Assembly: GCA_040775045.1 (NCBI GenBank)
Contig: JAXGTH010000001.1
Coordinates: 1,117-65,116, forward strand
DNA from: Bacteroidales bacterium
GTDB lineage: Bacteria > Bacteroidota > Bacteroidia > Bacteroidales > B18-G4
Direction of reading: 5' to 3'
DNA length: 64,000 nucleotides
The notes under the pieces were generated by a model. The model did no database searches, was not told the origin of the DNA, and worked only from the letters and a program-made list of their open reading frames with translations. Shown piece by piece: positions 17,561-34,401 of the stretch. A program made the position numbers and the translations under genes. The stretch's first letter is position 1. Each line of letters opens with the position of its first letter.

Positions 17561-18919
<1,359 letters not shown>

Positions 18920-19087: not shown

Positions 19088-22000
19088 ATGACCTATCAGA
19101 AGCCCATGGAAGAGCACAGCAAGCAGGATAAAGATCTTAAAAGACTACAGGCCGAAGCCCACGAACGGCTCAAGGAACTGGCCGCCATCAACCAGACCAC
19201 ACAGATCCTAACAGAAGGGAAAAGCATAGAAGAAACTCTTGGCAAACTGGTCGATATCCTTCCTCCTGCATGGCAGTACCCTGAATATACTGCTTCGCGG
19301 ATCACTTTTGGCGACCTGGAATTTACCAGCCGGAATTTTGTACCCACCAGCTGGGTGCAGAAGCAGTCGTTCGAAACCATCGACGGCATCAAGGGGAACA
19401 TCGAGGTCTATTACCTGCGTGAGTTCCCCGAACTTGACGAAGGCCCTTTCATGAAGGAAGAAAGGCACCTGATCAACAACCTGGCGGGGCTGATCACAGG
19501 CTACCTGAACAGCATCAAGGGCAAGAGCCTGCTCAGCAAGGAGCGCGACCGTATCCTCGAGGGCAATACCCGCAAATCGGTAACAACGCCTCTGGTCCAC
19601 AGCAGGCAGCTGCTTCAGAAATTTCTCAACAAGAGTAATTACGACCGTGACATATACCACGACCTGATGCCTTTCAAGGTGAAGGAGATCCTGCTGGTGG
19701 CCACCCTGTACGATGCCTACAGCATCGAAAAGGAAGGCCGGTTCTCCGAACACGTCCTGGGAGAATATCACCAGCTGAACCTGACTTCCGTCCCCAGGAT
19801 CACCGGGGTTTCCAATGAACAGGAAGCCATGGAGCAATTGCGGACAAGGCATTTCGACCTGGTGATCCTCATGATGGGAGCCGACAAGAAATCGCCCATG
19901 GCCCTGAGCTGCCAGATCAAGAACGAATATCCCTATATACCCGTCTTCCTGTTGCTCAACAACAACAGCGACATCGAATACGTGATGAAACGCAAGGCGT
20001 CCACGCAACATATCGATAAGGTCTTCGTCTGGAACGGCGAGTCGAAGGTGTTCTTTGCCATGATCAAGCACGTGGAGGACAAGATCAATGCAGAGAACGA
20101 CACCAGCGTAGGAATGGTCAGGGTGATCCTCCTGGTTGAGGATTCGCCCCAGTACTACTCCCGGTACCTGCCCATGCTCTATAATATCGTGCTCGAACAG
20201 ACCAAAAGGATCATCGACGATGTAAGTACGGACGAACTTTACAAGGTACTGAAACTCAGGGCCAGGCCTAAGATACTGCTGGCTTCAACCTTTGAGGAGG
20301 CCAAAGAGGTGATCGACAATTACAGGGATTACCTGCTCTGTCTTATCACCGACGTTAAGTTCCCGAGGAATGGGGAAGAGGACGAGGATGCTGGCCTCGA
20401 ACTGGTGAAATATGCCCGCAAAGCCATTAAGGACCTTCCCACGATCATACAATCCTCCGATGAGTCGGTGCTCGAGAAAACTTACAAGCTGAAAGCGACT
20501 TTCATCAACAAGAACTCGGAAACCCTGTCGCAGGATTTCAGGAGTTTTATCACGCACTACCTGGGATTCGGGAATTTCGTCTACAGGAACGAGAAGGGCA
20601 AGATCTTCGGGGTGGCCAGGTCGCTGAAGGAATTTGAAAAACAGTTGCAGACCATCCCTGATGAGTCGCTGCTGCATCATGCCAAAAAAGACCATTTTTC
20701 ACTGTGGCTCATGGCAAGGGGTGAAGTGCAGGCTGCAAAGATCCTCAATCCGCATAAGGTAAGTGATTTCAGCAGCCCGCAGAAGGTACGCGAATACATG
20801 CTTGAGATCATCACGAAATTCAGGAACGAGCAGGACAGGGGCAAGATCATTCCTTTCGACAAATCAGCCATCTCCGACGAATCCAATATCGTTTCCCTCA
20901 TGGAAGGATCACTCGGGGGGAAGGGCCGTGGCATCGCTTTTATCAACACGCTGATCTACAATTATGAGTTCAGCCAGTATGTGCCCGATATCCATGTTAA
21001 AGCGCCCAAAACCCTGCTGGTCGGCACGGAGGAGTTTGAATATTTCATGGGGCGCAACAAGCTTTACGATCTGGTGCTCAACGAGATGGATTATACCGTT
21101 GTCAAGAAGGAGTTTCTCAGGGCACCCCTCACCGATACCCTGGTGAAAAGGCTGAAGATCGTTCTGGAAGATATCCGTAAACCCCTGGCGATTCGATCGT
21201 CGGGGTTGTTCGAGGATTCCCTCGTACAACCCTTTGCCGGGATTTTCGAGACCTACATCCTGCCCAACAGTCATCCTGACCCCAGGGTTCGGCTTGAGCA
21301 GGTGATGGACGCGATCAGGCTTGTTTATGCGAGCGTATATTCCGAAACGGCCAGGGGTTATGTCAAGGCCATAAACTATAAGATCGAGGAGGAAAAGATG
21401 GCCGTTGTGATCCAGGAAGTGGTAGGCAATCATTACGGGCGTTATTTTTACCCTCATATCAGCGGGGTGGCCCAATCTTATAATTATTACCCGGTTTCGC
21501 ACATGCAGCCCGAGGAAGGCTTCGTGGTGGCAGCGATAGGCCTTGGCAAATACGTGGTGGAAGGGGAGAAGGCATACCGTTTCTCTCCGAAGTATCCCGA
21601 GATCGATATCAACAGTCCCAAGGACCAGTTCAAGAATTCGCAGGTACAGTTCTTTGCCGTGGATATGGAGAAGACCGAGCCAAACCTGCTCGAAGGCGAT
21701 ACGGCAGGCCTTGCCAGGCTCGACATCGATGATGCCGAGCAACACGGTACCTTGAAACATTGTGCATCGGTATTCAACCCGGACAACAACCAGATCATCC
21801 CGGGGCTGACGCATCAGGGCCCGCGCATCGTTAATTTTGCCAATATCCTCAAGTACGGGTATATCCCGCTGGCAAAGACCATAGAGGTGGTGCTTGATGT
21901 GGTGAAGGAAGCACTCGGGTCACCGGTGGAGATCGAATTTGCCATCGACCTGAACAAGGACAGGAGCGGTCTGGCATCTTTCTATCTGCTGCAAATAAAG

Positions 22001-22564
22001 CCTTTGCTCGGGAGTGCTTCCGATTACAATGTGAACCTCGACAAGATCAAAAAGGACCATATCCTCCTGTTTTCGGAAAAGGGCATGGGCAATGGTATCA
22101 TCGAGGACATCAGTGATGTGGTCTATGTCAATCCCCAGGCCTTCGACAAATCGAAGACGGAACAGATCGCGAAGGAAGTGGATAAGATCAATACAGCCCT
22201 GGTGGCCGAAAACAGGAAATATGTCCTGATCGGTCCCGGGCGTTGGGGTACCCGCGACCGGTGGATCGGCATTCCCGTTGCATGGCCGCAGATCTCCAAT
22301 GCCGGTGTGATCATCGAGACCAGCCTGGAGGATTTCCCGCTCGATGCCTCATCGGGCTCACATTTTTTCCATAACGTGACCTCCATGAATGTGGGATATT
22401 TCACGGTGCAGCCCGAATTCTCGAAAAGTTATATCCGTTATGAAATGCTGGAAAAGCAAGAACTTGTCGGGGAAACTGCATTTGTAAGGCATGTGCGCTT
22501 CCCGAAACCCCTCAAGGTGAGGATGGACGGTAAGAAACGTATTTCGGTGATCACCACGGAATAG
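19088..22564 (+). CDS. 1158-aa multidomain protein: N-terminal coiled-coil/GAF-like region, degenerate receiver, intact-looking receiver, PPDK_N-type ATP-grasp (PEP/pyruvate-binding) domain, conserved C-terminal domain
   Basis: The receiver shows 'VILLVEDS' and 'LLCLITDVKFP'. The ATP-grasp shows 'GSLGGKGRGIAF' and 'PLAIRSSGLFEDS..PFAGIFETY'. The C-terminus shows 'LIGPGRWGTRDRWIGIPVAWPQIS' and 'GSHFFHN'. It is a paralog of 34487-37462. Confidence 0.8.
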   Translation: MTYQKPMEEHSKQDKDLKRLQAEAHERLKELAAINQTTQILTEGKSIEETLGKLVDILPPAWQYPEYTASRITFGDLEFTSRNFVPTSWVQKQSFETIDGIKGNIEVYYLREFPELDEGPFMKEERHLINNLAGLITGYLNSIKGKSLLSKERDRILEGNTRKSVTTPLVHSRQLLQKFLNKSNYDRDIYHDLMPFKVKEILLVATLYDAYSIEKEGRFSEHVLGEYHQLNLTSVPRITGVSNEQEAMEQLRTRHFDLVILMMGADKKSPMALSCQIKNEYPYIPVFLLLNNNSDIEYVMKRKASTQHIDKVFVWNGESKVFFAMIKHVEDKINAENDTSVGMVRVILLVEDSPQYYSRYLPMLYNIVLEQTKRIIDDVSTDELYKVLKLRARPKILLASTFEEAKEVIDNYRDYLLCLITDVKFPRNGEEDEDAGLELVKYARKAIKDLPTIIQSSDESVLEKTYKLKATFINKNSETLSQDFRSFITHYLGFGNFVYRNEKGKIFGVARSLKEFEKQLQTIPDESLLHHAKKDHFSLWLMARGEVQAAKILNPHKVSDFSSPQKVREYMLEIITKFRNEQDRGKIIPFDKSAISDESNIVSLMEGSLGGKGRGIAFINTLIYNYEFSQYVPDIHVKAPKTLLVGTEEFEYFMGRNKLYDLVLNEMDYTVVKKEFLRAPLTDTLVKRLKIVLEDIRKPLAIRSSGLFEDSLVQPFAGIFETYILPNSHPDPRVRLEQVMDAIRLVYASVYSETARGYVKAINYKIEEEKMAVVIQEVVGNHYGRYFYPHISGVAQSYNYYPVSHMQPEEGFVVAAIGLGKYVVEGEKAYRFSPKYPEIDINSPKDQFKNSQVQFFAVDMEKTEPNLLEGDTAGLARLDIDDAEQHGTLKHCASVFNPDNNQIIPGLTHQGPRIVNFANILKYGYIPLAKTIEVVLDVVKEALGSPVEIEFAIDLNKDRSGLASFYLLQIKPLLGSASDYNVNLDKIKKDHILLFSEKGMGNGIIEDISDVVYVNPQAFDKSKTEQIAKEVDKINTALVAENRKYVLIGPGRWGTRDRWIGIPVAWPQISNAGVIIETSLEDFPLDASSGSHFFHNVTSMNVGYFTVQPEFSKSYIRYEMLEKQELVGETAFVRHVRFPKPLKVRMDGKKRISVITTE

Positions 22565-22767: not shown

Positions 22768-23631
22768 ATGAGCTACGAACTGATCTCTCTCAAACTTAAA
22801 TGTCCTGTTTGCGGGAAATCGCTGATGGATAGTGAACACCTGGTGGACAACGAACCCAGCATTTACCTGAATGTAAAAATGGCAGGGAAAAGCGGTGAGA
22901 TACGCCTGAGTTCGATCTATGGCAGTTATAATTACACGACCAATATCGAGATGCCGAAGGGTGAGGTGGCAGAATTTTACTGCCCGCACTGCAGCGCAGA
23001 GATTACCTCGGATGTCGAGTGCCTGAGTTGCAGGGCCCCCATGGTACCTTTTTACCTGGATATGGGTGGGAAGGTGACCATCTGCTCGAGGAGCGGATGC
23101 AAGAACCACTTCGTCGAGTTCGAAGATCTCTCCGTGGCCCTCAGGAAATTATACCAGGAATACGGGCTTGCCGGAAAAGACAGTTTCAGGCCCGACAGGG
23201 ACAGGGTCAGGGCGGAACAACCCGTTGATGAGGAAAAGGAGATCCTTGAATCGGGCACTTATCTGAATTCCTATTGCCCGCATTGCCACAAGAGCCTGAT
23301 CGAGGAAAATATGCTGAAGCTGAAAATACACAACGGGGAGGAGGGTTTCCTTTTATTAAGCCCGTACCTCAATGTATTCACCAGCAAGTCGACCATCTTT
23401 CTCGAAGAGGACAAGGCATTAAAGGATGTGCGTTGCTGGCATTGTGGAAAAAGCCTTATCCCTGAACAAAAGTCATGTGGCAAATGTGGTTCCGATGTCG
23501 TCAAGATAGAGGTCAGTGCCCGCACCAAACTGATCGATTTTTATATCTGTACCAAAAAGGGTTGCCGCTGGCACGGGCTCAGCGACGATGATTATTACGA
23601 TATCCGTTTGCAGGACAGCCTTGAATGGTGA
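22768..23631 (+). CDS. Cys-rich protein made of two tandem ~125-aa 8-Cys zinc-ribbon/rubredoxin-like modules
   Basis: Module 1 carries CPVC..CPHC..CLSC..CSRSGC. Module 2 carries CPHC..CWHC..CGKC..CTKKGC. Module 2 aligns by eye with the N-terminus of the NfnB-like protein. Confidence 0.7.
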   Translation: MSYELISLKLKCPVCGKSLMDSEHLVDNEPSIYLNVKMAGKSGEIRLSSIYGSYNYTTNIEMPKGEVAEFYCPHCSAEITSDVECLSCRAPMVPFYLDMGGKVTICSRSGCKNHFVEFEDLSVALRKLYQEYGLAGKDSFRPDRDRVRAEQPVDEEKEILESGTYLNSYCPHCHKSLIEENMLKLKIHNGEEGFLLLSPYLNVFTSKSTIFLEEDKALKDVRCWHCGKSLIPEQKSCGKCGSDVVKIEVSARTKLIDFYICTKKGCRWHGLSDDDYYDIRLQDSLEW

Positions 23632-23657
23632 GCATGGTATAACGAAATCTTGTTCTT

Positions 23658-24482
23658 ATGTTCCAGATCGTCAGAAAACAGGAAATGGCCAGGGGAACGA
23701 TCATACGTTTCGACCTGAGTGCCCCGAAGATCGCCAAAAAGGTCAAAGCCGGGCAATTTATTATCCTGAGGGTGAACGAAACCGGTGAGCGTATTCCCCT
23801 TACTGTTGCGGATAAGGACGAATTTGCCGGCATCATTACCATCATCTTCCAGGTGGTCGGTAAGACTACGGCCTTGATGCGCTCGCTTAACGAGGGCGAC
23901 CTGATCAGGGACGTGGTAGGCCCCCTCGGGAAACCGGCTCATGTCGAAAAGGTGGGAACCGTGGTGATGGTGGGCGGCGGGACAGGTGTAGCCATCCTCC
24001 ACCACGTGGCCAAAGCCTTTAAGGAAGCCGGCAATTTCGTGATCAGCATCGTCGGTGCCCGCGACAGGGAAATGCTTATCCTGGAGAATGAGATGAAGCA
24101 GATCAGCGATGAACTGGTGGTCACGACCGACGACGGCAGCTATGGTGAAAGGGGATTCGTTACGGATCCGCTGAAAAAGTACCTCGACGAACGCTACGAC
24201 ATCAAGCTTGTGTATGCCATCGGGCCCATCATAATGATGCAGAATGTGGTGAAACTGACAAAAAAGTACAAGATGCCCACCATGGTCAGCCTGAACCCCA
24301 TCATGATCGACGGTACGGGAATGTGTGGCGGCTGCAGGGTTAAAGTCGGCGACAAGGCCCAGTTCTGTTGCGTCGATGGCCCCGATTTCAATGGCTTCGA
24401 AGTTGATTTCGAAGAATTGATCAACAGGAATTCACTTTATCTGAAAGAAGAGAAAGACTCACTGCTTTTCTCGATCAGGTAA
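23658..24482 (+). CDS. nfnA: NfnA/SudB-type subunit (FAD/NAD(P)-binding, PyrK-like, 2Fe-2S)
   Basis: 'RIPLTVAD', 'VMVGGGTGVA' and the C-terminal 'GMCGGCRV...FCCVDGP' cluster motif. Confidence 0.85.
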   Translation: MFQIVRKQEMARGTIIRFDLSAPKIAKKVKAGQFIILRVNETGERIPLTVADKDEFAGIITIIFQVVGKTTALMRSLNEGDLIRDVVGPLGKPAHVEKVGTVVMVGGGTGVAILHHVAKAFKEAGNFVISIVGARDREMLILENEMKQISDELVVTTDDGSYGERGFVTDPLKKYLDERYDIKLVYAIGPIIMMQNVVKLTKKYKMPTMVSLNPIMIDGTGMCGGCRVKVGDKAQFCCVDGPDFNGFEVDFEELINRNSLYLKEEKDSLLFSIR

Positions 24483-24500
24483 TATCATAAAGCATTTGCC

Positions 24501-26330
24501 ATGTTAGACCAGGATGTTAAATACCTAAAATTTAAGACCTATCTTAATACTTACTGTCCGCATTGCCACGAGAGTTTCAATGTTGAAAAAAAGGACCGTA
24601 AGCAGATCAATTTTAAAGCGGTATATAAAAACGAAGACATCGACCTGGTCCTCAGTCCCTATCTCGACGTTTTTGAGGTGGAGGCCTCCACTGAGATTAT
24701 CCTGGGTGATACTGTCGATGATATCAAATGCCCGCATTGTGGCAAAAGTTTGATCCATAAGGATATGCCATGTGGAGAATGTGGTTCTCCGGTTGCCGAG
24801 GTGATCGTGTCGGCAGCTTCACGGCTCATCCCGTTTTTCCTCTGTTCCAAATATGGTTGTGAATGGCATGGGCTGAGCAAACGCGACGAGCGGCATATCA
24901 AGCTGAAGATCCCGAGGCAGGAGATGCCTGAGCAGGATCAGACCCTTCGCGTGCACAACTGGCAGGAAGTGCCATACGGTTATACCTCCGAACTGGCCCT
25001 GCTGGAGGCGGGCCGGTGCCTGCAGTGTAAAAAGCCTATGTGTGTTGAGGGTTGCCCGGTAAATGTCGACATCCCTTCGTTCATTGCACTCGTGGCCGAA
25101 GAGAAATTCAATGATGCGGCCAAGAAGATCAAGGAAAGGAATGTTTTTCCCGCCATCTGCGGCCGGGTCTGCCCCCAGGAGAGCCAGTGCGAATCGAAAT
25201 GCGTGCTGGGCCATAAGGACCAGCCTGTGGCTATCGGAAGGCTTGAACGTTTTGTTGCCGATTATGAACGTAAGATGGACCTGGTAAATGTTCCGACCAT
25301 CACAGAGAATACAGGCCAAAAGATCGCAGTGGTGGGTTCGGGCCCGGGAGGTCTCACAGTGGCTGCCGACATGCGGCAACTGGGTTACAGCGTTACGGTT
25401 TATGAGGCCCTTCATGAAACGGGAGGCGTGCTTACCTATGGCATCCCCGAGTTCAGGCTGCCCAAATCCATCGTGCAGTTCGAGATCGAGTACCTGAAGC
25501 AAATGGGTGTTCGCTTCGAGCTCAACCACGTGATCGGCAATATCCTCACCGTTGATGAATTGCTCGAACATTTCGATGCCGTCTTTGTAGGTGTAGGAGC
25601 AGGATTTCCCTTGTTCATGGGACTTGAGGGCGAAAGCCTGGGTAGCGTCTTTTCAGCCAATGAATATCTCACCCGGATGAACCTGATGAAGGCCTACCGC
25701 TTCCCTGAATACGACACTCCCATGCCTAAAGGGCACAAGGTGGTGGTGGTCGGTGGCGGCAATGTGGCCATGGACTGCGCACGTACCGCTGCACGATCGG
25801 GGGCCGATGAAGTGACCATCGTGTACCGCCGCTCACGGCATGAACTTCCCGCCAGGGCAGAGGAGGTACACCATGCTGAAGAGGAAGGGATCAGATTCAA
25901 ACTGCTGACCAACCCTGTCAGGTACATCGGTACCGACAATAACAAGGTAAAGGCGGTTGAATGTATCAGGATGGAACTGGGCGAGCCGGACGCCTCAGGG
26001 CGGAGACGCCCTATCCCCATACAGGATTCGAACTTTACGATTGAATGCGACATGGCCATCGTGGCTATCGGCAATGGCCCCAATCCCATCATCTTCAACT
26101 CAACCCCCGATATGGAACTCAACAAATGGGGCTATATCAAAACAGATCCCGAAAGCAATGAAACTACAAAGGCTTTCGTCTATGCGGGCGGCGATATCGT
26201 TACAGGTTCGGCTACGGTGATCCAGGCCATGGGTGCCGGAAGGATAGCTGCAAATGCCATGCATGAGCGACTGACTGCCATACGTGAAAAAAAGAAAAAA
26301 CCTGCCCCGAAGAAGAAGACCGTTAAATAG
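24501..26330 (+). CDS. nfnB: NfnB/SudA/GltD-type subunit with an N-terminal zinc-ribbon module fusion and a Lys-rich tail
   Basis: Residues 1 to ~140 carry CPHC..CPHC..CGEC..CSKYGC. The GltD core follows: 'CLQCKKPMCVEGCPVNVDIPSFI', 'ICGRVCPQE..CE..C', 'VAVVGSGPGGL', 'VVVVGGGNVAMDCART'. The tail reads 'REKKKKPAPKKKTVK'. Confidence 0.85.
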   Translation: MLDQDVKYLKFKTYLNTYCPHCHESFNVEKKDRKQINFKAVYKNEDIDLVLSPYLDVFEVEASTEIILGDTVDDIKCPHCGKSLIHKDMPCGECGSPVAEVIVSAASRLIPFFLCSKYGCEWHGLSKRDERHIKLKIPRQEMPEQDQTLRVHNWQEVPYGYTSELALLEAGRCLQCKKPMCVEGCPVNVDIPSFIALVAEEKFNDAAKKIKERNVFPAICGRVCPQESQCESKCVLGHKDQPVAIGRLERFVADYERKMDLVNVPTITENTGQKIAVVGSGPGGLTVAADMRQLGYSVTVYEALHETGGVLTYGIPEFRLPKSIVQFEIEYLKQMGVRFELNHVIGNILTVDELLEHFDAVFVGVGAGFPLFMGLEGESLGSVFSANEYLTRMNLMKAYRFPEYDTPMPKGHKVVVVGGGNVAMDCARTAARSGADEVTIVYRRSRHELPARAEEVHHAEEEGIRFKLLTNPVRYIGTDNNKVKAVECIRMELGEPDASGRRRPIPIQDSNFTIECDMAIVAIGNGPNPIIFNSTPDMELNKWGYIKTDPESNETTKAFVYAGGDIVTGSATVIQAMGAGRIAANAMHERLTAIREKKKKPAPKKKTVK

Positions 26331-26478
26331 CAGCCAGGCTTTCAACCAACCTGTAGCAGAGCCAGGTGAGCTCCGGCAATTCTTGTTTGTCGATGTTCAA
26401 GGGTAAATCGCATGGGCGCCTGACCCCCTTCCTGAACATTTTGCCCTTACAACTTGTTTCCTGAAAACAGCTTCAGGC

Positions 26479-27036
26479 ATGAAAATACACCGGGCCATAG
26501 GTATTTTACTTCTCCTGGCGGGAATGGCGTTCGTCATTTCATGCTCCAGTAACGACGACCCTGTCTATACCGAAAAGAAACCCACCGCCCTTGAGGTGAT
26601 CAATGCGCAGGGGGTGAGTGTTCCGGTGTATGATTTTGAGGGCTTCAGCCCCATGCTGGATTATTACAACGATACCCTCTATGTGTTTAACTTCTGGGCT
26701 ACCTGGTGCCAGCCCTGCGTGAAGGAAATGCCTTACTTCAACATGGCAGACTCGGCCTATGCCGGTATGCCGGTACGCATCGTGCTGGTCAGCCTCGATT
26801 TTACCGAAAATGTTGAGGATGTGCTGATCCCCTTCATCCTGGAAAAAGAGCTGCGGCCTGAGGTGATCGTGCTTGATGACCCCGATGCCAACAGCTGGAT
26901 ACCCGAGATCGATCCCTCCTGGGAAGGAGCCATACCGGCAACGCTGTTTTTCAAGATGAAAAAGCGCAAGTTCATGAACCAGGCCTTCACCTATGAGGAA
27001 CTTTCAAATGAAATTGACGAACTATTAAAACCTTGA
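26479..27036 (+). CDS. Lipoprotein, TlpA/ResA-like thiol:disulfide oxidoreductase
   Basis: Lipobox 'FVISCSS' and thioredoxin motif 'FWATWCQPC'. Confidence 0.75.
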   Translation: MKIHRAIGILLLLAGMAFVISCSSNDDPVYTEKKPTALEVINAQGVSVPVYDFEGFSPMLDYYNDTLYVFNFWATWCQPCVKEMPYFNMADSAYAGMPVRIVLVSLDFTENVEDVLIPFILEKELRPEVIVLDDPDANSWIPEIDPSWEGAIPATLFFKMKKRKFMNQAFTYEELSNEIDELLKP

Positions 27037-27040
27037 TAAT

Positions 27041-27646
27041 ATGAAAACTACAGTAATATTTTTCCTTTCCATGATCATCACCTCCTCCATGGCCTTTGCC
27101 GGCGGGTATGAGGTGGGCGACAAGGCCGGCGACTTCACCCTCAAAAATGTCGACGGCAAAATGGTTTCACTGACCGATTATCCCGAGGCCAAAGGTTTCA
27201 TCGTGATCTTTACCTGTAACCACTGTCCTTATTCAAAGCTTTATGAGGACCGCATCATCGCCCTCGACGCTAATTACAGGGACAAGGGGTTCCCGGTCAT
27301 TGCCATCAACCCGAACGACCCGGCCGTACAGCCCGAGGACAGCTACCCGCTGATGCAGGTGAGGGCAAGGGAAAAGGGTTTCACCTTCCCGTATCTTTTT
27401 GATGAGACCCAGGATGTAGCCAGGGCGTACGGGGCCACCCGGACACCGCACGTTTTTATCCTCTCCATGGATGAAGGTGACCTGATCGTAAAATACATCG
27501 GGGCCATCGACAACAACAGCAAGAGTGCTGCCGAAGCCAGCGAGAAATATGTTGAGGATGCCCTGAACGCCCTCCTCAGCGGCAACGATCCCGCAGTGAA
27601 TTATACCCGGGCTGTCGGATGCACGATAAAGTGGAAAGCGGACTGA
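27041..27646 (+). CDS. Exported thioredoxin-fold (redoxin/AhpC-TSA-like) protein
   Basis: A signal peptide is followed by 'IVIFTCNHCPYS' (CxxC). Confidence 0.75.
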   Translation: MKTTVIFFLSMIITSSMAFAGGYEVGDKAGDFTLKNVDGKMVSLTDYPEAKGFIVIFTCNHCPYSKLYEDRIIALDANYRDKGFPVIAINPNDPAVQPEDSYPLMQVRAREKGFTFPYLFDETQDVARAYGATRTPHVFILSMDEGDLIVKYIGAIDNNSKSAAEASEKYVEDALNALLSGNDPAVNYTRAVGCTIKWKAD

Positions 27647-27652
27647 CCTGCC

Positions 27653-27682
27653 GACCTCACAGGTCGCCCGACCTGTGAGGTC
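27653..27682 (+). terminator. Perfect 14-bp-stem hairpin after the thioredoxin genes
   Basis: GACCTCACAGGTCG-CC-CGACCTGTGAGGTC lies 7 nt after the stop codon. There is no T-tract. Each arm is itself a small palindrome. Confidence 0.5.
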
Positions 27683-27860
27683 AGGTCGAAGCCATTTGAC
27701 ATATATCTGACAATATTTTCAATTCCCCTGCCTTCTGTTTTGCAGACCAAGTTTTATATCAATTCATTATCTTCATTATCAGTCACATATATTCCTTATT
27801 CGGGGCAATTTAGACCATATATAAATTATGGGGTTTAAAGGGCTGGCATGAAACATTTTA

Positions 27861-27868
27861 TAAATTTG
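27861..27868 (+). promoter_or_regulatory. Candidate -7 box TAAATTTG for the nuoE-like operon
   Basis: It matches TAnnTTTG and lies 25 nt upstream of ATG 27893. Confidence 0.45.
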
Positions 27869-27892
27869 TCAGCGCCTTAAAACCTTTATAAA

Positions 27893-28411
27893 ATGCGGAT
27901 TGAAAGAATAGATGTGAAGCGGGAAACCGACGAGCAGGCTGCGGTCGATACCGGGTTGCTCAACCCCCTGATCGATAAGTATAAAAACCAGAAAGGAAAT
28001 CTCATTCCCCTGCTCCAGGGGGCGCAGGATATCTACGGTTATATCCCGCGCGAAGCTTTTGAAAAACTTTCGGCCGAAACCGGGATACCCCTCAGCGAGA
28101 TGTACGGGGTAGCCACCTTTTATGCGCAGTTCAGGCTGAAACCTGTTGGAAAGCATATCATAAAGGTTTGCCACGGCACAGCCTGCCATGTCCAGAATGC
28201 CAAATCGATCACAACTTCCCTGAAGGAGGCCCTCAAAGTGGACGACGGCGGAACCACGGAAGACGGGCTCTTCACCCTCGAGTCGGTAGCATGCCTGGGT
28301 TGCTGCTCCCTGGCACCGGTCATGATGATCGGCAACGAAACCTACGGCAAGCTTACAGGTGCCCAGGCTGTGAAGATCGTAAAGAACATCAGGATCAGTG
28401 AAAACAATTGA
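27893..28411 (+). CDS. NuoE/HydC/HndA-like thioredoxin-like [2Fe-2S] subunit
   Basis: 'LIPLLQGAQD', 'KVCHGTACH' and 'VACLGCCSLAPVMM'. Confidence 0.9.
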   Translation: MRIERIDVKRETDEQAAVDTGLLNPLIDKYKNQKGNLIPLLQGAQDIYGYIPREAFEKLSAETGIPLSEMYGVATFYAQFRLKPVGKHIIKVCHGTACHVQNAKSITTSLKEALKVDDGGTTEDGLFTLESVACLGCCSLAPVMMIGNETYGKLTGAQAVKIVKNIRISENN

Positions 28412-28437
28412 TTTGACAACACTTTTGAAACAATAAT

Positions 28438-30213
28438 ATGGAAACAAAAGTAATCGTTGGTCTCGGAAGTTGCGGCATCGCTGCCGGAGCGGGAAAAGTG
28501 TACGACAAGATAGCGGCCATCAAAAAAGCGGAGAACCTCACCTTCGAATTGAAAAAGACCTCGTGTATCGGTATGTGTTACCGGGAGCCGCTGGTCGAGA
28601 TCATCGACGATTCGGGAAGGTACCTTTACGGCGATATCGACGAAGAGCGCATCATTGAGGTGATCGATAAGCATGTCGGGCAGCAGAATCCCGTGAAGGA
28701 ATTCGTGGTGCAGTCGGACCTCTTCGAGACCGTCGACAACGAATATACCAACGACCAGGTGAAGATCGCCCTCCGTAACTGCGGGTATATCGATCCGGAG
28801 AGTATAGAGGAATACGAGGCCAGGGACGGATACCGTGCCATCCGCAAGATCGCGGGACATGGCATGTCGAGGCTCGATGTGATCCAGGAAGTCATCGCTT
28901 CGGGCCTGCGCGGCCGAGGGGGCGGGGGCTTCCCGACAGGGTTGAAATGGAAATTTGCGAACAACAACAAAGCCGATGAAAAATATATCATCTGTAATGC
29001 CGACGAGGGCGATCCCGGTGCTTTCATGGACCGTTCCGTGCTGGAGGGCGATCCCCACTCGGTGCTCGAAGGGATGATCATCGGGGCATACGCCATCGAG
29101 GCTACCGGCGGGGTGATCTATTGCCGTGCCGAGTACCCGCTGGCCATCAAACGCCTTCGCATTGCCATCGGGCAGGCCCGCGAAAAGGGCTACCTGGGGA
29201 AGAACATCCTCGGGATCGAGGGCTTCAACTTCGACATCTATATCAAGGAGGGTGCCGGGGCATTTGTGTGCGGGGAGGAAACCGCACTGATCGCCTCGGT
29301 AGAGGGCCAGCGCGGCATGCCACGCAAGCGTCCGCCCTTCCCGGCTGCTTCAGGATTGTGGAAGAAGCCCACCAACATCAATAACGTGGAAACCTTTGCC
29401 AACATTCCCTGGATCATCCAGCACGGGGCTTCCGAATATGCCAGGTACGGTACGGAGAAGAGCAAGGGCACCAAGGTATTTGCCCTGGCCGGCAAGATAA
29501 AGCGTTCAGGGCTGGTGGAAGTGCCCATGGGCATGAGCATCAGGGATGTGATCTTCAAGCTTGGCGGAGGGATTCAGGATGACAAGGAATTCAAGGCCGT
29601 GCAGATGGGCGGACCCTCGGGGGGCTGCATCCCGGCACACCTGGCCGACACCATCGTCGATTATGACTCGGTGAATGCCACCGGCGCCATCATGGGTTCC
29701 GGCGGGATGGTCGTGATGGACGAAACTACCTGTATGATCGACGTGGCCAAATTCTTCCTCGACTTCACGCAGAAGGAATCCTGCGGGAAATGTACCTTCT
29801 GCCGCATAGGCACCAAACGTATGCTGGAGATCCTTACAAGGATCACTGAAGGGAAAGGTGAAGAGGGCGACATCGAAAGGCTGGAGGAACTGGCTTACCA
29901 GATCAAGGACAACTCGCTTTGCGGCCTTGGGCAGACAGCTCCCAACCCGGTGCTCACCACCATAAAATACTTCAGGGATGAGTATGAGGCCCATATCCGG
30001 GATAAAAAATGCCCGGCCCACGTCTGCACCAACCTGCTCACCTATACCGTCGATGCCGAAAAGTGCACGGGCTGTACCGTATGTGCCAAAAATTGCCCGG
30101 TAGAGGCCATCAGCGGCGAGCGTAAGGAGGTCCACTTCATCGACCAGGAAAAATGCATCAAGTGCGGTGTGTGTTACACCAAATGCAAGTTCGACGCCAT
30201 AATCTTATCATAA
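28438..30213 (+). CDS. NuoF/HydB/HndC-like NADH-binding FMN/FeS subunit (N-terminal 2Fe-2S domain, C-terminal 2x[4Fe-4S])
   Basis: 'GRGGGGFPTGLKWKF' (FMN site), 'ESCGKCTFCR', 'CTGCTVCAKNCP' and 'CIKCGVCYTKC'. Confidence 0.9.
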   Translation: METKVIVGLGSCGIAAGAGKVYDKIAAIKKAENLTFELKKTSCIGMCYREPLVEIIDDSGRYLYGDIDEERIIEVIDKHVGQQNPVKEFVVQSDLFETVDNEYTNDQVKIALRNCGYIDPESIEEYEARDGYRAIRKIAGHGMSRLDVIQEVIASGLRGRGGGGFPTGLKWKFANNNKADEKYIICNADEGDPGAFMDRSVLEGDPHSVLEGMIIGAYAIEATGGVIYCRAEYPLAIKRLRIAIGQAREKGYLGKNILGIEGFNFDIYIKEGAGAFVCGEETALIASVEGQRGMPRKRPPFPAASGLWKKPTNINNVETFANIPWIIQHGASEYARYGTEKSKGTKVFALAGKIKRSGLVEVPMGMSIRDVIFKLGGGIQDDKEFKAVQMGGPSGGCIPAHLADTIVDYDSVNATGAIMGSGGMVVMDETTCMIDVAKFFLDFTQKESCGKCTFCRIGTKRMLEILTRITEGKGEEGDIERLEELAYQIKDNSLCGLGQTAPNPVLTTIKYFRDEYEAHIRDKKCPAHVCTNLLTYTVDAEKCTGCTVCAKNCPVEAISGERKEVHFIDQEKCIKCGVCYTKCKFDAIILS

Positions 30214-30236
30214 ACGAAAATCAAAGGACCAGCATA

Positions 30237-33200
30237 ATGAGTGAAAAGGTAAATGTTATACTGAACGGAAAGATCGTTCCCGGTATCAAGGGGGAAACCA
30301 TCCTCCAACTGGCCAAACGAAACGGGATCGAAATACCTACCCTTTGCAACGACCCCCGGCTTGAACCCTACACCTCGTGTTATGTTTGTGTGGTGGAGGT
30401 GGAAGGTCTCAGGGGCCTCCAGCCTTCATGCTCCACGAAGATATCGGAGGGGATGCGGATCGAAACGCATAACGAAAAGATCGCCGGAGCCAGGAAAACC
30501 GCCCTCGAACTGATCCTGAGCAATCATTATGCCGACTGTATCGGGCCATGCAAGCAAACGTGTCCGGCAGGTGTTGATGTCCAGGGGTATATCTCGCACA
30601 TCGAAAAGGGACAATACCACGATGCCGTGGCACTCATCAAGGAAACGAATCCCCTGCCCGCCATTTGCGGCCGTGTATGTGTGCGCCCGTGCGAGGTGGC
30701 ATGCCGCCGCAACCTGCTTGATGAAACTTCTCCTGTCGGGATCGACTACCTGAAACGCTTCGCGTCGGATTACGACCTGGAATCGGAAAATAAATGGAGA
30801 CCTCAGGTCAAGCCTGAAACTGGCAAAAAGGTTGCCATCATCGGTGCCGGCCCGGGAGGCCTCTCTGCCGCCTTCTTCCTGCGGAAGGAAGGCCACGATA
30901 TCGACATCTTCGAAGCCAGCCCCAAAGCGGGCGGATGGCTGAGGTACGGCATCCCTGAATATCGCCTGCCCAACGATATCCTGCAGAAAGAGGTTGACAA
31001 CATCACGGAAATGGGTGTACGCATCCATTATAAGAAACGCCTGGGTGATAACCTTAAATATGCTGACCTGCAAAAGAAATACGATGCCGTGGTACTTGCC
31101 ATAGGTTCGCAGAAAGGGACCATGATCGGGGTGGAAGGTGATGATGCCGAGCATGTCTTTTCAGGGATCGACTTCCTCAAGGAAATGGAGATGACCGGGA
31201 AACGATACGACTTCACTGGCAAAAGAGTTGCCGTGGTGGGCGGTGGGAATACCGCCATGGACTGCTGCCGTACTTCGATGCGTTGCGGTGCCGAAAAGGT
31301 ATTTGTCATCTACCGGCGTACCGAAAATGAGATGCCTGCCAACCCCATCGAAATCCATGAGTCGAAACTCGAAGGAGTGGAATACATGCTCCTCACCAAT
31401 CCGGTGAAGATCAACAAATCAAAGGACGGCAAGGTAAGGTCGGTCACCTGCCTGAAAATGGAACTGGGCGAACCTGATGCTTCAGGGAGGAGAAGGCCCG
31501 TGCCTATCCAGGGTTCGGAATTCGACCTGGAGGTTGATTTTGTGCTGGCCGCCATCGGGCAAAAGACGGATGTTGATTTCACCGACGACATGAACAAGGC
31601 CGTGAAGAAGGGTGAACTCAAGCTGAATCGCTGGGGCGATATCGATGCCGATCCGAAAACCTTGCAAACCGGTGTCGAGAACGTATTTGCCGCCGGGGAT
31701 AGCGTAACAGGCCCTGCCACACTGATCCAGGCCATCGGGCAGGCCAGGATCGCAGCCCACAGCTGCGACCTCTATCTTCGTGGTGAGGAGGTCAGTCCCT
31801 TCCCTTATGAATTCTTCAGCAGGCGCGACAACTTCAAGACACAGGTTAAGGAAGATTATACCGGGAAATACAGCAAGCAGGAGCGGGAAGAAATGCCCAC
31901 CCTCGACCCAAAGAAAAGAAAGAATTTCAAGGAGGTGGAGCTGGGATATGAAAGTGAGGAGGTGGCTAGACATGAAGCGCTGCGCTGCATGGAATGCGGA
32001 TGTACGGAGCTGTATACCTGCGACCTGAAAAAATATGCCACCGAATACCAGGCCCGCCAGGAAGGAGTGAGGGGCGAATATAAGGAATACGGGGTTGATT
32101 TCCGGCATCCTTTTGTCGAGATCGACAACAACAAATGCGTACTGTGTGCCCGCTGCGTCAGGATATGCCGCGATGTGGTCGGGGCCAATGCGCTTGGCCT
32201 GGTCAACAGGGGCTTCGACACCTTTGTTGCCCCCAGCATGGGCAACACATTGCAGGATACCATGTGTGAAAGCTGTGGCATGTGTATCAGCACCTGTCCG
32301 ACCGGAGCGATAACCGAGAACGTTCCATTCAAACCCGGCCCGGTAAGGCTCGAAAAAGTACAGGGCATCTGCAACTTCTGTTCCATCGGGTGTGAACTCG
32401 ACTATGAACACAAAAGCGGTTTCGTGATGCGTGTCGAAGGTCGCGACGGCCGTGTGAATGCCAACGGCAACCTTTGCAAGTACGGCAAGTTTGGTTATAA
32501 AAACCTGAACGACAAGTCGCGCCTGACAAAACCCATGATGAAGATCAACGGACGGTTCGAGGAGATCGGTTTCGATGAGGCATTCAGCATCATGGCTGAG
32601 AAAATTAAGTCCGTCGCACCCGACGACAATGCCTTCTTTGCCGGTGCACGGCTGAGCAATGAGGAGCTGTACCTGATCCAGAAGCTGGCCCGGGCCGGTG
32701 CCGGGACCAATAATGTAACATCTTTCCATTACCTGAACAGGGGGATGGGTTATGCGGGCAATTCAAGGGCGAACGTCCCCTTTACACAGTTAAAGGACGC
32801 CAGCAGGATATACCTGATCGGGGCGGAATTGAACCGCGATAATCCCGTCCTGGGCTTCATGGTGAACAATGCGAAGGTGATGCATCATGTCCCCGTTGAG
32901 CTCGTTACTGTTCATGACCCGAGCAGCATGGAGCACAAGGCCGGCAAGACGCTGAAAGTTAAGTCATATTACCATTTCATCAAGGCAGTGAACTACTACC
33001 TCGTGGCCAACAATTTCCATAACGGGCTCTTCATCGGCGATCTTTGTGAAGGTTTTGCAGCATACAGGGAAGACCTGCTGAAAGAAAATTTCGTCGATCT
33101 CATCGAAAAGTCAGGGGTGCAGTTCATGGACAGTGTTATCGAGTTTGCCAAGGCATACAACAATGAGCTGAATGCCGTGATCATCTTTTCCGAGAAAGAA

Positions 33201-33935
33201 CTGTGTTCAAATGCCTGCAGCGAGCTGTTTAATCTTGCCATGATCACCGGAAAGCTTGGGAAAACGGCCAACGGGCTGGTGAGCATCAAGGAAAAGAACA
33301 ATGCTCAGGGTATCTTCGATATGGGCATTTGCCCTTTGCTGGGAGTAGGCGGCATTGATATCCTCGACAAGAAACTCCAGGCGGGCATGAAAAAACTCTG
33401 GAAGGTGAAATCACTGCCTTCGGATGTTAATGCCAGCCAGTACGAGAGGCTTGAAAAGGGTAAGCTGAAGAACCTGTTCATCTTTGGTGAAGACCCGCTG
33501 GGGTGTACCAACGACAAGGTCAAGGTGGCCGGCTGGCTTACGGTAGCCGATTTTGTGGTGGTAATGGACTATTTCATGACCGGAACCGCGGCCCAGGCCG
33601 ACCTGGTGCTACCGGCAAGCTTCCCCTTTGAGTCGGGTGGTACCTTCACCAACACACAAAAGGTGATTCAGCACTTTGAGGCCGGTTTCGAGCCGGAAAA
33701 CGGGATGACTACACTGGAACAGCTGGCCATGCTGATGAAACACCTCGACATTCAGCAGGAAAGCACTCCGGATTCCGTGATGGCAGAGATCACAAAACTG
33801 CTTCCCGGGACAGATATCGACGGGAAGTACGCCTTTGCGACCACCAGGGAAACGAACAACTGCCATATGTTCGATCACGGCTGCGATCATATCGTGAAGT
33901 ATTTTGATGATGAATTCAACAACGCCTTTAAATAA
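30237..33935 (+). CDS. 1232-aa fusion subunit: NuoG-type N-terminal [2Fe-2S], inserted GltD/NfnB-like FAD/NAD(P)H module, [4Fe-4S] region, and a truncated molybdopterin-oxidoreductase-like domain without catalytic Cys/Sec
   Basis: The start is set at ATG 30237 ('MSEKVNVILNGK') after the nuoF-like stop. Motifs in order: 'LCNDP..SCYVCVVEV..SC'; 'CIGPCKQTCPAGVDVQGYI', 'ICGRVCVRPCEVAC', 'VAIIGAGPGGL', 'VAVVGGGNTAMDCCRT'; 'CVLCARCVRIC', 'CESCGMCISTCP', 'CNFCSIGC'. The FdhF 'CCARVUHGPSV' position reads 'TSFHYLNRGMGY'. Confidence 0.85.
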   Translation: MSEKVNVILNGKIVPGIKGETILQLAKRNGIEIPTLCNDPRLEPYTSCYVCVVEVEGLRGLQPSCSTKISEGMRIETHNEKIAGARKTALELILSNHYADCIGPCKQTCPAGVDVQGYISHIEKGQYHDAVALIKETNPLPAICGRVCVRPCEVACRRNLLDETSPVGIDYLKRFASDYDLESENKWRPQVKPETGKKVAIIGAGPGGLSAAFFLRKEGHDIDIFEASPKAGGWLRYGIPEYRLPNDILQKEVDNITEMGVRIHYKKRLGDNLKYADLQKKYDAVVLAIGSQKGTMIGVEGDDAEHVFSGIDFLKEMEMTGKRYDFTGKRVAVVGGGNTAMDCCRTSMRCGAEKVFVIYRRTENEMPANPIEIHESKLEGVEYMLLTNPVKINKSKDGKVRSVTCLKMELGEPDASGRRRPVPIQGSEFDLEVDFVLAAIGQKTDVDFTDDMNKAVKKGELKLNRWGDIDADPKTLQTGVENVFAAGDSVTGPATLIQAIGQARIAAHSCDLYLRGEEVSPFPYEFFSRRDNFKTQVKEDYTGKYSKQEREEMPTLDPKKRKNFKEVELGYESEEVARHEALRCMECGCTELYTCDLKKYATEYQARQEGVRGEYKEYGVDFRHPFVEIDNNKCVLCARCVRICRDVVGANALGLVNRGFDTFVAPSMGNTLQDTMCESCGMCISTCPTGAITENVPFKPGPVRLEKVQGICNFCSIGCELDYEHKSGFVMRVEGRDGRVNANGNLCKYGKFGYKNLNDKSRLTKPMMKINGRFEEIGFDEAFSIMAEKIKSVAPDDNAFFAGARLSNEELYLIQKLARAGAGTNNVTSFHYLNRGMGYAGNSRANVPFTQLKDASRIYLIGAELNRDNPVLGFMVNNAKVMHHVPVELVTVHDPSSMEHKAGKTLKVKSYYHFIKAVNYYLVANNFHNGLFIGDLCEGFAAYREDLLKENFVDLIEKSGVQFMDSVIEFAKAYNNELNAVIIFSEKELCSNACSELFNLAMITGKLGKTANGLVSIKEKNNAQGIFDMGICPLLGVGGIDILDKKLQAGMKKLWKVKSLPSDVNASQYERLEKGKLKNLFIFGEDPLGCTNDKVKVAGWLTVADFVVVMDYFMTGTAAQADLVLPASFPFESGGTFTNTQKVIQHFEAGFEPENGMTTLEQLAMLMKHLDIQQESTPDSVMAEITKLLPGTDIDGKYAFATTRETNNCHMFDHGCDHIVKYFDDEFNNAFK

Positions 33936-33945
33936 ATAACAGGAA

Positions 33946-34401
33946 ATGAAAGATCTGACAACATTTGATACCATACTCGATTTTGCCATTGAGGAAGAAC
34001 AGAAAGCGGTGGATTTCTATTCAGAACTTGCCGGACAGGCATCTTCCGACGATATGCGTCTTGTATTCGAGGAATTTGCACAAGAGGAGGTCAGGCATAA
34101 GACGAAACTCATGGAGGTGAAGGAAACAGGCATGACCAACATGCCGCCCGAGAATGTTGCCGACCTTAAGATCGCCGATTATACAGTCAATGTAAAGCCA
34201 ACGCCCGGCATGTCATACCAGGAGGCACTGGTCGTGGCCATGAACAAGGAAAAGGCTGCTTTCAGGCTCTACACTTCATTATCGCAAAGGGCTGATGATC
34301 CGGTGCTTAAAGAGCTTTTTGCCGCTCTTGCCCAGGAGGAATCAAAGCATAAACTGAGGTTCGAGGTGGAATATGATGAGTATGTGCTGAGGGAGAATTA
34401 A
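33946..34401 (+). CDS. Rubrerythrin/ferritin-like di-iron four-helix protein
   Basis: It has two E...ExxH pairs: 'EEEQKA...QEEVRHK' and 'NKEKAA...QEESKHK'. Confidence 0.7.
   Translation: MKDLTTFDTILDFAIEEEQKAVDFYSELAGQASSDDMRLVFEEFAQEEVRHKTKLMEVKETGMTNMPPENVADLKIADYTVNVKPTPGMSYQEALVVAMNKEKAAFRLYTSLSQRADDPVLKELFAALAQEESKHKLRFEVEYDEYVLREN

Follow-up and report, generated by a model that had tools for sequence, protein, structure and literature searches.

A repeated eight-cysteine module, probably an unrecognized accessory part of NfnAB-type enzymes in Bacteroidales and other lineages

NfnSL (NfnAB), an electron-bifurcating ferredoxin/NADH:NADP+ transhydrogenase, has been treated as the simplest model of a bifurcating enzyme, a system of two subunits and five cofactors. 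A locus in a 64,000-nucleotide (nt) stretch of DNA from a Bacteroidales bacterium (contig JAXGTH010000001.1; the whole stretch is called the window below) raises the question of what else such an enzyme may carry. Three codirectional genes, located from a list of open reading frames (ORFs), encode a 287-amino-acid (aa) protein (22768-23631), an NfnA/NfnS protein of 274 aa (23658-24482), and an NfnB protein of 609 aa (24501-26330); all three, like the upstream PPDK_N gene and the Bfu-type genes described below, are on the forward (+) strand. A preliminary description of this DNA had proposed that the 287-aa protein consists of two modules with four Cys pairs each, that a third copy forms the N-terminal region of NfnB, and that the module decorates NfnAB as an undescribed accessory. 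We asked what this module is, where else it occurs, and what it may do. Our conclusion is that it is probably an unrecognized accessory part of energy-coupling NfnAB-type enzymes.

Three homologous copies of one module

The three segments are homologous. Module 1, a divergent copy, occupies aa 9 to 121 of the 287-aa protein (22789-23130); module 2, the canonical copy, occupies aa 154 to 287 (23227-23628); and module 3, aa 1 to 136, is the N terminus of NfnB (24501-24908). Eight Cys are in register across all three, arranged as four pairs and followed by a His: C12/15, C72/75, C85/88, C106/111, and His114 in module 1; C170/173, C223/226, C237/240, C261/266, and His269 in module 2; and C19/22, C77/80, C91/94, C115/120, and His123 in module 3. 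Pairwise blastp comparisons, run with composition-based statistics off, gave 42% identity over 135 aa between module 2 and the NfnB N terminus (E = 7e-40), 25% identity between modules 1 and 3 (E = 2e-8), and 23% identity between modules 1 and 2 (E = 2e-6). The formal alignment that had been named beforehand as a possible refutation thus found significant similarity among all three segments.

An independent hidden Markov model (HMM) was built from 12 stand-alone modules from other organisms and zero window sequences. It scored module 1 at 46 to 49.3 bits, module 2 at 163 to 164.4 bits, and module 3 at 119 to 124.1 bits. When the modules were shuffled 300 times with every Cys held fixed, the mean scores were −0.1 to 2.3 bits and the maxima were 12.3 to 23.8 bits, the maximum for module 1 being 12.3 bits. 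Because the true scores lie so far above those of the Cys-fixed shuffles, the similarity among the modules far exceeds shared Cys spacing. In a six-frame scan of the 64-kb window, the HMM found exactly three copies. Both halves of the 287-aa product and the NfnB N terminus are therefore copies of the module, as first described, and the ORF coordinates agree with the described gaps of 26 nt between the two-module gene and nfnA and 18 nt between nfnA and nfnB.

Across 124 near-full-length domain instances, the eight Cys were 94 to 100% conserved and the trailing His was 86% conserved; the family consensus is CPxC ... CPHC ... CxxC ... CxRxGCxxH. Module 2 carries the motif LSPYLNVF, which belongs to a conserved beta-sheet insert, and, like many stand-alone modules, it ends in an acidic DSxEW-COOH tail, here DSLEW-COOH, which is also the C terminus of the 287-aa protein. 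That protein has no signal peptide, and its parts are, in order, module 1, a helix (aa 121 to 133), a disordered linker (aa 134 to 153), and module 2.

Comparison with curated families and solved structures

The module is new to the curated resources, solved structures, and Nfn literature that we searched. Fifteen proteins (the window proteins and 12 diverse stand-alone members) were compared with Pfam-A 2025 and NCBIfam 2026, and no family covering the whole module scored above its cutoff. The NCBIfam matches to the modules were all far below their cutoffs. The Pfam check of the NfnB residues and the 287-aa protein, which had been proposed at the outset, returned no known whole domain, only knuckle-length generic matches covering 21 of ~130 module residues. 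Module 2 matched PF13240 (Zn_Ribbon_1) at 39.4 bits (cutoff, 25), at aa 223 to 243 only, and it matched PF12773 (DZR) at 31.2 bits (cutoff, 27.3) at aa 168 to 241. The NfnB module scored 15.2 bits against PF13240, below the cutoff; module 1 had no passing match; and the stand-alone members matched Pfam zinc ribbons over short, subthreshold stretches only.

The module does resemble generic zinc ribbons (PF13240, PF12773, and the HVO_2753 type) in having CPxC or CxxC knuckles at beta-hairpin turns, and in module 2 the match over knuckles 2 and 3 exceeds the cutoffs of both PF13240 and PF12773. However, those models are ~21 to 45 residues long, whereas the module has ~130 residues and includes the LSPYLNVF insert, a Cx4C-xx-H fourth knuckle, and, often, DSxEW. 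The family is small and specific, distinct from the generic ribbon.

Profile searches of the PDB with the module gave C2H2-finger artifacts only, and Foldseek comparison of the module with the PDB and BFVD gave nothing at an E value of <1e-3. Many module homologues carry weak precomputed matches to PF09334; P0315 reached 25.5 bits over the knuckle region (cutoff, 20.1), and the window protein had an E value of 0.013. Homology to the zinc knuckle of methionyl-tRNA synthetase (MetRS), considered on account of these hits, was rejected, as the match to solved MetRS was not significant (E = 0.46). The MetRS zinc-knuckle insertion (PF09334 positions ~108 to 227; Pyrococcus abyssi 1RQG) has nested double knuckles, which would agree with the pairing proposed below for the module, but its resemblance to the module is at most remote and structural; the module has no synthetase core.

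Module proteins are named "hypothetical" in databases, are unnamed, or carry generic COG labels, and the fused NfnB is named only "NADPH-dependent glutamate synthase." A survey of Nfn architectures (PMC6405883) distinguishes four patterns, A to D, none with the module, the NfnB tail described below, or a third gene. Pfam, NCBIfam, the PDB, and these four patterns thus bear out the original impression that the module had not been described as an accessory of NfnAB.

The partner genes are a canonical NfnSL pair

NfnA matched NF004862 at 3e-115 and Pyrococcus furiosus NfnS (5jca_S) at an E value of 2.6e-92. It is the subunit that binds FAD and NAD and carries a [2Fe-2S] cluster ligated by an Asp and three Cys (ligands identified in PMC12221290). 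Its motif DGTGMCGGCRV...FCCVDGP aligns with DGTGMCGACRV...FACVDGP of P. furiosus; the cluster ligand Asp217 (native numbering) corresponds to D223 in the PDB chain.

The NfnB/NfnL core, aa 139 to 590 (24915-26270), consists of an N-terminal segment, a Fer4_20 domain with two [4Fe-4S] clusters (PF14691; 1.5e-43; aa 150 to 259), and a Pyr_redox_2 domain for FAD and NADPH (PF07992; 1.4e-34; aa 274 to 580). The GltD-type motif for the first [4Fe-4S] cluster, CLQCKKPMCVEGCP, begins at Cys173, close to where it had been placed. Residues 139 to 593 aligned end to end with residues 5 to 461 of Thermotoga maritima NfnB (4ylf_B; E = 6.8e-169), the core matched P. furiosus NfnL at an E value of 5.9e-148, and the TIGR01316 score was 583 bits (cutoff, 472).

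A true NfnB is distinguished from NfnB-like Fnor proteins by an extended N-terminal segment, an equivalent of PfArg333, and an nfnA gene directly upstream (PMC12221290). The window NfnB has all three: aa 139 to 172 align to T. maritima residues 5 to 38 and P. furiosus residues 8 to 41, and Arg452 (conservation of ≥90% among 92 sequences) corresponds by alignment to Arg333 of PfNfnI-B. On this evidence, nfnA and nfnB form a canonical NfnSL pair, and their first assignment to the NfnAB type stands. Compared with NfnSL of T. maritima (4YLF/4YRY) and P. furiosus NfnI (5JCA), the window NfnA and NfnB core are alike end to end, including the cluster ligand motifs.

The differences are the extra 136-aa Cys8 module, a Lys-rich NfnB tail, and the two-module gene in front of nfnA. 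All of the solved NfnL/NfnB chains are without the module and begin where the extra 136 to 138 residues stop. The tail, aa 591 to 609 and followed by the stop codon (26271-26330), has a net charge of +8 as read from the sequence; the terminal sequence of NfnB is REKKKKPAPKKKTVK. This tail, at first noted only as unusual, proved to be a genuine trait of the module-bearing NfnB subfamily: in 51 such proteins it had a median of 17 aa and 7 Lys or Arg, whereas neither plain NfnB paralogues nor the split form described below has it. Among the paralogues without the tail are those encoded by plain nfnB genes convergent to the two-module gene (L017, L022, L033, L062, L069, L112, L115, and L120), several of which terminate in ...GEW, GKW, SNW, or GVW. 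Trp is also the last residue of the stand-alone modules that end in DSxEW, perhaps by coincidence.

Predicted fold and metal sites

In AlphaFold2 models of both proteins, the module is all beta, has all of its Cys pairs at hairpin turns, and reaches block values of the predicted local distance difference test (pLDDT) of ~85 to 93. The mean pLDDT of the 287-aa protein was 79.8, with values of 85 to 93 in the modules and <50 in the linker; in NfnB, the module had block values of ~84 to 93 over aa 11 to 130. The module is thus predicted to have four beta-hairpin knuckles, enough for two tetrahedral metal sites. Because Zn_Ribbon_1 covers knuckles 2 and 3 (39 bits), we infer that the pairing is likely nested, with knuckles 2 and 3 as an inner ribbon and knuckles 1 and 4 as an outer clasp. 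In a subgroup of stand-alone modules (P0281, P0285, P0299, and P0301), Cys6 is absent, and in three of the four the trailing His is replaced by Gln or Tyr; of the two presumed sites for metal, one may be dispensable or have other ligands.

Eight invariant Cys in four knuckles would also suit an electron carrier. One or two rubredoxin-type Fe(Cys)4 centers, or other Fe-S centers, in each module could lengthen the route of electrons through NfnB, NuoE, or RnfB, and the free protein could be a diffusible or docked one-electron carrier that links NfnSL to the Bfu-type Nfn encoded nearby or feeds a ferritin/rubrerythrin-like partner. We regard this as a serious, though less likely, rival of the docking explanation given below. 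Rubredoxin-type domains are four-Cys knuckle sites found on redox enzymes of anaerobes, such as flavorubredoxin and rubrerythrin; the hosts of the module all seem to be anaerobes with many Fe-S enzymes, and the fusion sites adjoin cluster domains (Fer4_20 of NfnB, [2Fe-2S] of NuoE, and the polyferredoxin RnfB). However, no rubredoxin model was among the matches at E values of ≤1 for the window proteins or ≤0.01 for the stand-alone members. Rubredoxins have a conserved Gly behind the second Cys (CxxCG...CPxCG); in the knuckles of the module this position is variable across the family. Each module also has two predicted sites. In addition, the potentials of rubredoxins are far more positive than the low-potential branch to which the module attaches.

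The charge of the module was also considered as a possible mimic of ferredoxin, but its pI, 5.1 to 8.4, was not distinctive.

Distribution and architectures of the family

An exhaustive profile search of 1.84 billion proteins found 357 representatives at E values of ≤1e-3, and 143 at ≤1e-10. Most of these are stand-alone proteins of 130 to 160 aa. The two-module protein has 739 homologous clusters of ~286 to 291 aa, and the module::NfnB fusion has at least 120 clusters at ≥75% identity, among them P0150, which matches the window protein at 100% identity; both forms are common in uncultured Bacteroidales. All 73 of the genome loci are in metagenome-assembled genomes (MAGs) from Bacteroidales, Lentimicrobiaceae, and Ignavibacterium, and in others labeled Chlorobiota, Cytophagia, and Syntrophaceae; fused forms also carry the labels KSB1 and Cloacimonadota. 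By label, the architectures span Bacteroidota, Ignavibacteriota, Deltaproteobacteria, Cytophagia, KSB1, and Cloacimonadota.

One set of three genes, the two-module gene followed by nfnA and module::nfnB (the trio below), recurs at no fewer than 40 genome loci and ~25 metagenome loci, across Bacteroidales, Ignavibacteria, and one Chlorobiota-labeled MAG. There is a split form, in which the two-module gene and nfnA are followed by a module gene of 151 aa and an nfnB of 421 aa, and the two-module gene is also found beside or between plain nfnAB pairs. Within a NiFe-hydrogenase cluster, an nfnA-like gene and an nfnB-like gene are followed by a module gene that starts on the next base. At this locus, L144:371-12041, the three genes lie between two [NiFe]-hydrogenase sets, one group-4-like and one sulfhydrogenase-like.

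The partners extend beyond Nfn. At seven loci, a single-module gene at the end of an rnf operon overlaps the stop of a gene for an RnfB::GltD fusion. In L001:2027-4563 and L087:3860-6447, this fusion of RnfB to a GltD-like NADPH/FAD domain has 695 aa; no description of such an Rnf variant was found in the literature searched. A single-module gene also overlaps the start of a gene for a membrane-anchored multihaem cytochrome, which in L088 is followed by rnfC-(D)-G-E-A. C-terminal fusions of the module to NuoE form four 50%-identity clusters and are encoded beside NuoF or NuoF::GltD, at loci that also carry a 2Fe2S/4Fe4S protein and a GltB-like protein. Two of these loci, L083:5001-11134 (with a NuoF::GltD of 1,084 aa) and L078:5518-10749, look like they encode a NuoEF-driven, glutamate-synthase-like complex; the GltB-like protein has an FMN domain, and a sigma-54 activator gene lies upstream. 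In L097, a second two-module gene is directly before nuoE-nuoF (L097:9217-10711, between module::nfnB and nuoE-nuoF), which suggests that the two-module protein can also serve a Bfu-type complex.

The remaining fusions are of the module with CBS pairs (four clusters), with a cyclase and AAA_16 (one protein), and with a Mur ligase (one protein). A few modules are in unrelated neighborhoods.

A GltD-type gene was located within 1.5 kb of the module in 86 of 144 loci. Of the others, 10 had NfnA at a contig end, 9 had NuoE/F or cytochrome/Rnf genes, and 7 were too short; about half of the remaining 32 were truncated by contig ends. The module is a mobile accessory and is nearly always found together with GltD/NfnB- or NuoE/F-type subunits, which belong to ferredoxin-linked NAD(P) oxidoreductases. 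The preliminary description had connected it with NfnAB in particular. The recurrent trio and the survey of co-occurrence that it proposed support that connection, but the partner set is wider than Nfn, and contexts without Nfn linkage, which it had listed as a possible refutation, are partly present (the NuoE fusions, RnfB::GltD, the CBS pairs, and a few unrelated loci). What stood was the association with Nfn; what did not was its exclusiveness.

It could be argued that the modules are generic zinc ribbons and that their adjacency to nfnAB is gene order inherited in a few lineages. Related Bacteroidales MAGs do supply most of the loci, some loci without nfnAB still pair the two-module gene with another neighbor (see below), and a few modules are in unrelated contexts. 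Yet at least six fusion or adjacency architectures join the same partner types under varied phylum labels, a variety that inherited gene order hardly explains and, for the covalent fusions, does not explain at all. Given also how small and specific the family is, we regard the absence of any functional link as extremely improbable.

A candidate docking domain and a putative third Nfn component

The explanation that we favor, tentatively and at somewhat under an even chance, is that the module is a metal-stabilized docking or adaptor domain and that the two-module protein is a third component of Nfn. Canonical NfnSL would become a system of NfnA, a module-bearing NfnB, and the free two-module protein. 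The metal sites of the module would be structural and would probably hold Zn. The fused module would mark the ferredoxin-facing end of NfnB, just ahead of the cluster-binding N-terminal domain. The free two-module protein would bind NfnB as a third subunit, by pairing of module with module, by contact of the acidic DSxEW-COOH tail with the Lys-rich tail of NfnB, or by both; once bound, it could control partner access, assembly, or coupling to the neighboring Bfu-type Nfn. The co-occurrence of the basic NfnB tail with the module was counted in favor of docking.

RnfB is the ferredoxin-side subunit of Rnf. The most probable binding site for ferredoxin on NfnB is close to the distal cluster in the N-terminal domain (PMC5861303), and Bfu enzymes have a mobile NuoE-type 2Fe-2S domain that adjoins the site for ferredoxin (PMC12018979). 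We infer that the module is located at the low-potential, ferredoxin-facing end of its host enzymes. Both reports can equally be cited for the module as an electron carrier. We favor docking over a redox function because the module has no rubredoxin family match, because the Cys6 site degenerates in some members, because the module is appended to CBS, cyclase, and Mur-ligase proteins, which are not electron transfer contexts, and because the knuckles do not keep the Gly that is conserved in rubredoxins. A bolder form of the electron transfer idea is that the module is a new iron-binding redox carrier and that the two-module protein shuttles between or bridges NfnSL and the Bfu-type Nfn and, elsewhere, serves Rnf, NuoEF-GltS-like complexes, and hydrogenase-linked NfnB. 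This we think unlikely; if true, several unrelated enzymes, bifurcating or ion-pumping, would have an unrecognized substitute for ferredoxin at their low-potential end.

Several points weigh against the docking explanation or limit it. Zn and Fe cannot be told apart from the sequence, and a secondary citation (PMC7521041) reports iron binding by the CBS-linked Zn-ribbon protein TA0289, which also speaks for a redox role. In the AlphaFold2 model of NfnB, aa 137 to 162 have low confidence, and the predicted template modeling score of the whole chain is 0.52, so the model is silent on where the module sits or docks on the core. Mean-field direct-coupling analysis of 673 and 437 module instances (effective numbers of sequences, 237 and 148) gave no confirmation of the knuckle pairing; indel and subfamily signals were dominant. 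The loci are phylogenetically related, so that counts overstate their independence, and GltD, NuoE/F, and Rnf neighbors are all lacking at ~14 informative loci. Lastly, in 48 Bacteroidales loci the gene directly upstream of the two-module gene encodes a PPDK_N (ATP-grasp) protein with a receiver-like (REC) domain, and ~8 such PPDK_N/two-module loci have no adjacent nfnAB. In Bacteroidales, then, the two-module gene is linked to the PPDK_N/REC gene at least as tightly as to nfnAB. At the Ignavibacteria and Chlorobiota-labeled loci, the trio and the Bfu-type genes are kept and the PPDK_N gene is absent, which makes the Nfn linkage the cross-phylum constant.

TA0289 was also considered as a relative of the module, and the module profile did not match its PDB entry; the two are analogous only.

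The PPDK_N proteins bear on a regulatory reading as well, in which the Cys sites would be a thiol/Zn-based sensor of redox state or metal, or else a sensor's output domain, and would gate the enzyme according to oxidative, iron, or nucleotide status. CBS pairs are sensors of adenosyl ligands, and their fusions with the module would fit such a role, as would the cyclase-AAA_16-module protein, the Fur genes beside the module in L004 and L005 and near it in L086, the receiver-domain PPDK_N proteins on both sides of the window locus, and the conserved DSxEW tail, a possible plug or docking peptide. However, the module has no homology to known Zn-thiolate switches, the CBS fusions are in unrelated neighborhoods, and fusion to catalytic subunits with strict conservation of eight Cys would equally fit a constitutive structural or cofactor role. 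We consider a regulatory switch distinctly unlikely.

An accessory Zn subunit that aids Fe-S insertion or stabilizes a cluster domain has a precedent in NDUFS6/NUMM, which sits on the NADH-dehydrogenase/Fe-S arm of mitochondrial complex I and has a structural or assembly role; it is eukaryotic, has a single Cys3His site, and is not known to be homologous to the module. Consistent with such a factor, the module is always beside cluster-rich subunits, and the tight or overlapping gene junctions suggest stoichiometric coproduction. JGI labels some members "HypA/HybF-like," but the basis is generic knuckle similarity only. Maturation factors, though, are rarely fused permanently to their targets, the solved NfnAB chains of T. 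maritima and P. furiosus assemble without the module, and plain NfnB paralogues coexist in the same loci. A role limited to assembly or stability is therefore, in our estimate, very unlikely.

Bfu enzymes (HydABC and NfnABC/Stn) offer another comparison, as structural Zn is found in these ferredoxin-dependent bifurcating enzymes, and an enzyme of this type is encoded next door. The Bfu Zn ions replace Fe-S clusters within the NuoF-like subunit (PMC12018979). They were rejected as relatives of the module: there is no shared sequence and no separate module.

A large set of uncultured Bacteroidales, Ignavibacteria, and related anaerobes thus have NfnSL plus a conserved module and a third gene that annotation has missed or called "hypothetical." The recurrence of the module on Rnf, NuoEF-type, and hydrogenase-linked systems points to a shared requirement at the ferredoxin/NAD(P)H interface, be it for docking, a redox center, or regulation, and the window system is small and soluble. 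If the module is purely a structural Zn scaffold, the gain would lie chiefly in improved annotation and one more domain family.

Neighboring genes

The Bfu-type NfnABC/Stn gene set lies at 27893 to 33935 and was identified by Pfam domains and PDB matches (9bov_A, 1.2e-241; 8oh5_C, 4.5e-231; Thermococcus sibiricus NfnA 9n5u_A, 5.2e-197). It consists of a NuoE-like subunit (27893-28411), a NuoF-like subunit (28438-30213), and a BfuA-type large subunit of 1,233 aa (30234-33935) with 2Fe-2S, GltD-like, and molybdopterin-like domains. The segment from 23658 to 33935 thus encodes both of the unrelated types of Nfn, NfnSL and Bfu, and this pairing beside the trio is repeated in many Bacteroidales and Ignavibacteria loci.

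Ten nucleotides after the large-subunit gene is a gene for a ferritin/rubrerythrin-like protein of 151 aa with no rubredoxin domain (33946-34401). NCBIfam PRK12775 models a trifunctional NfnA-NfnB-ferritin fusion, so a link between Nfn and a diiron protein is possible; a partner without its own rubredoxin domain would suit the idea that the two-module protein delivers electrons. However, the ferritin-like gene is not conserved beside the trio, and in L053 and L073 the two-module gene has the Bfu genes as its immediate neighbors.

The PPDK_N protein upstream of the two-module gene has 1,158 aa and a weak receiver-like domain (19088-22564; PF01326, 2e-36). A second PPDK_N protein with a receiver-like domain, of 991 aa (34487-37462), lies beyond the Bfu genes, and the two bracket the Nfn/Bfu region; they may be regulators or modifiers of the locus. 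Scans for promoters and terminators gave counts at shuffle expectation, and the single Bacteroidetes-type TTTG...TAnnTTTG match in the promoter scan was located elsewhere.

On the minus strand, gdhA, which encodes glutamate dehydrogenase, lies at 17561 to 18916. It recurs near the two-module gene, and in L093:5533-7936, a locus where nfnAB is not close by, gdhA comes directly after the two-module gene; this proximity is suggestive of a connection with NADPH/glutamate metabolism. Between the two Nfn systems (26479-27646) are two genes for thioredoxin-fold proteins (AhpC/TSA and TlpA-like) with signal- or lipoprotein-like N termini, a pair shared only with the closest relatives (L008, L010, L011, L015, and L072).

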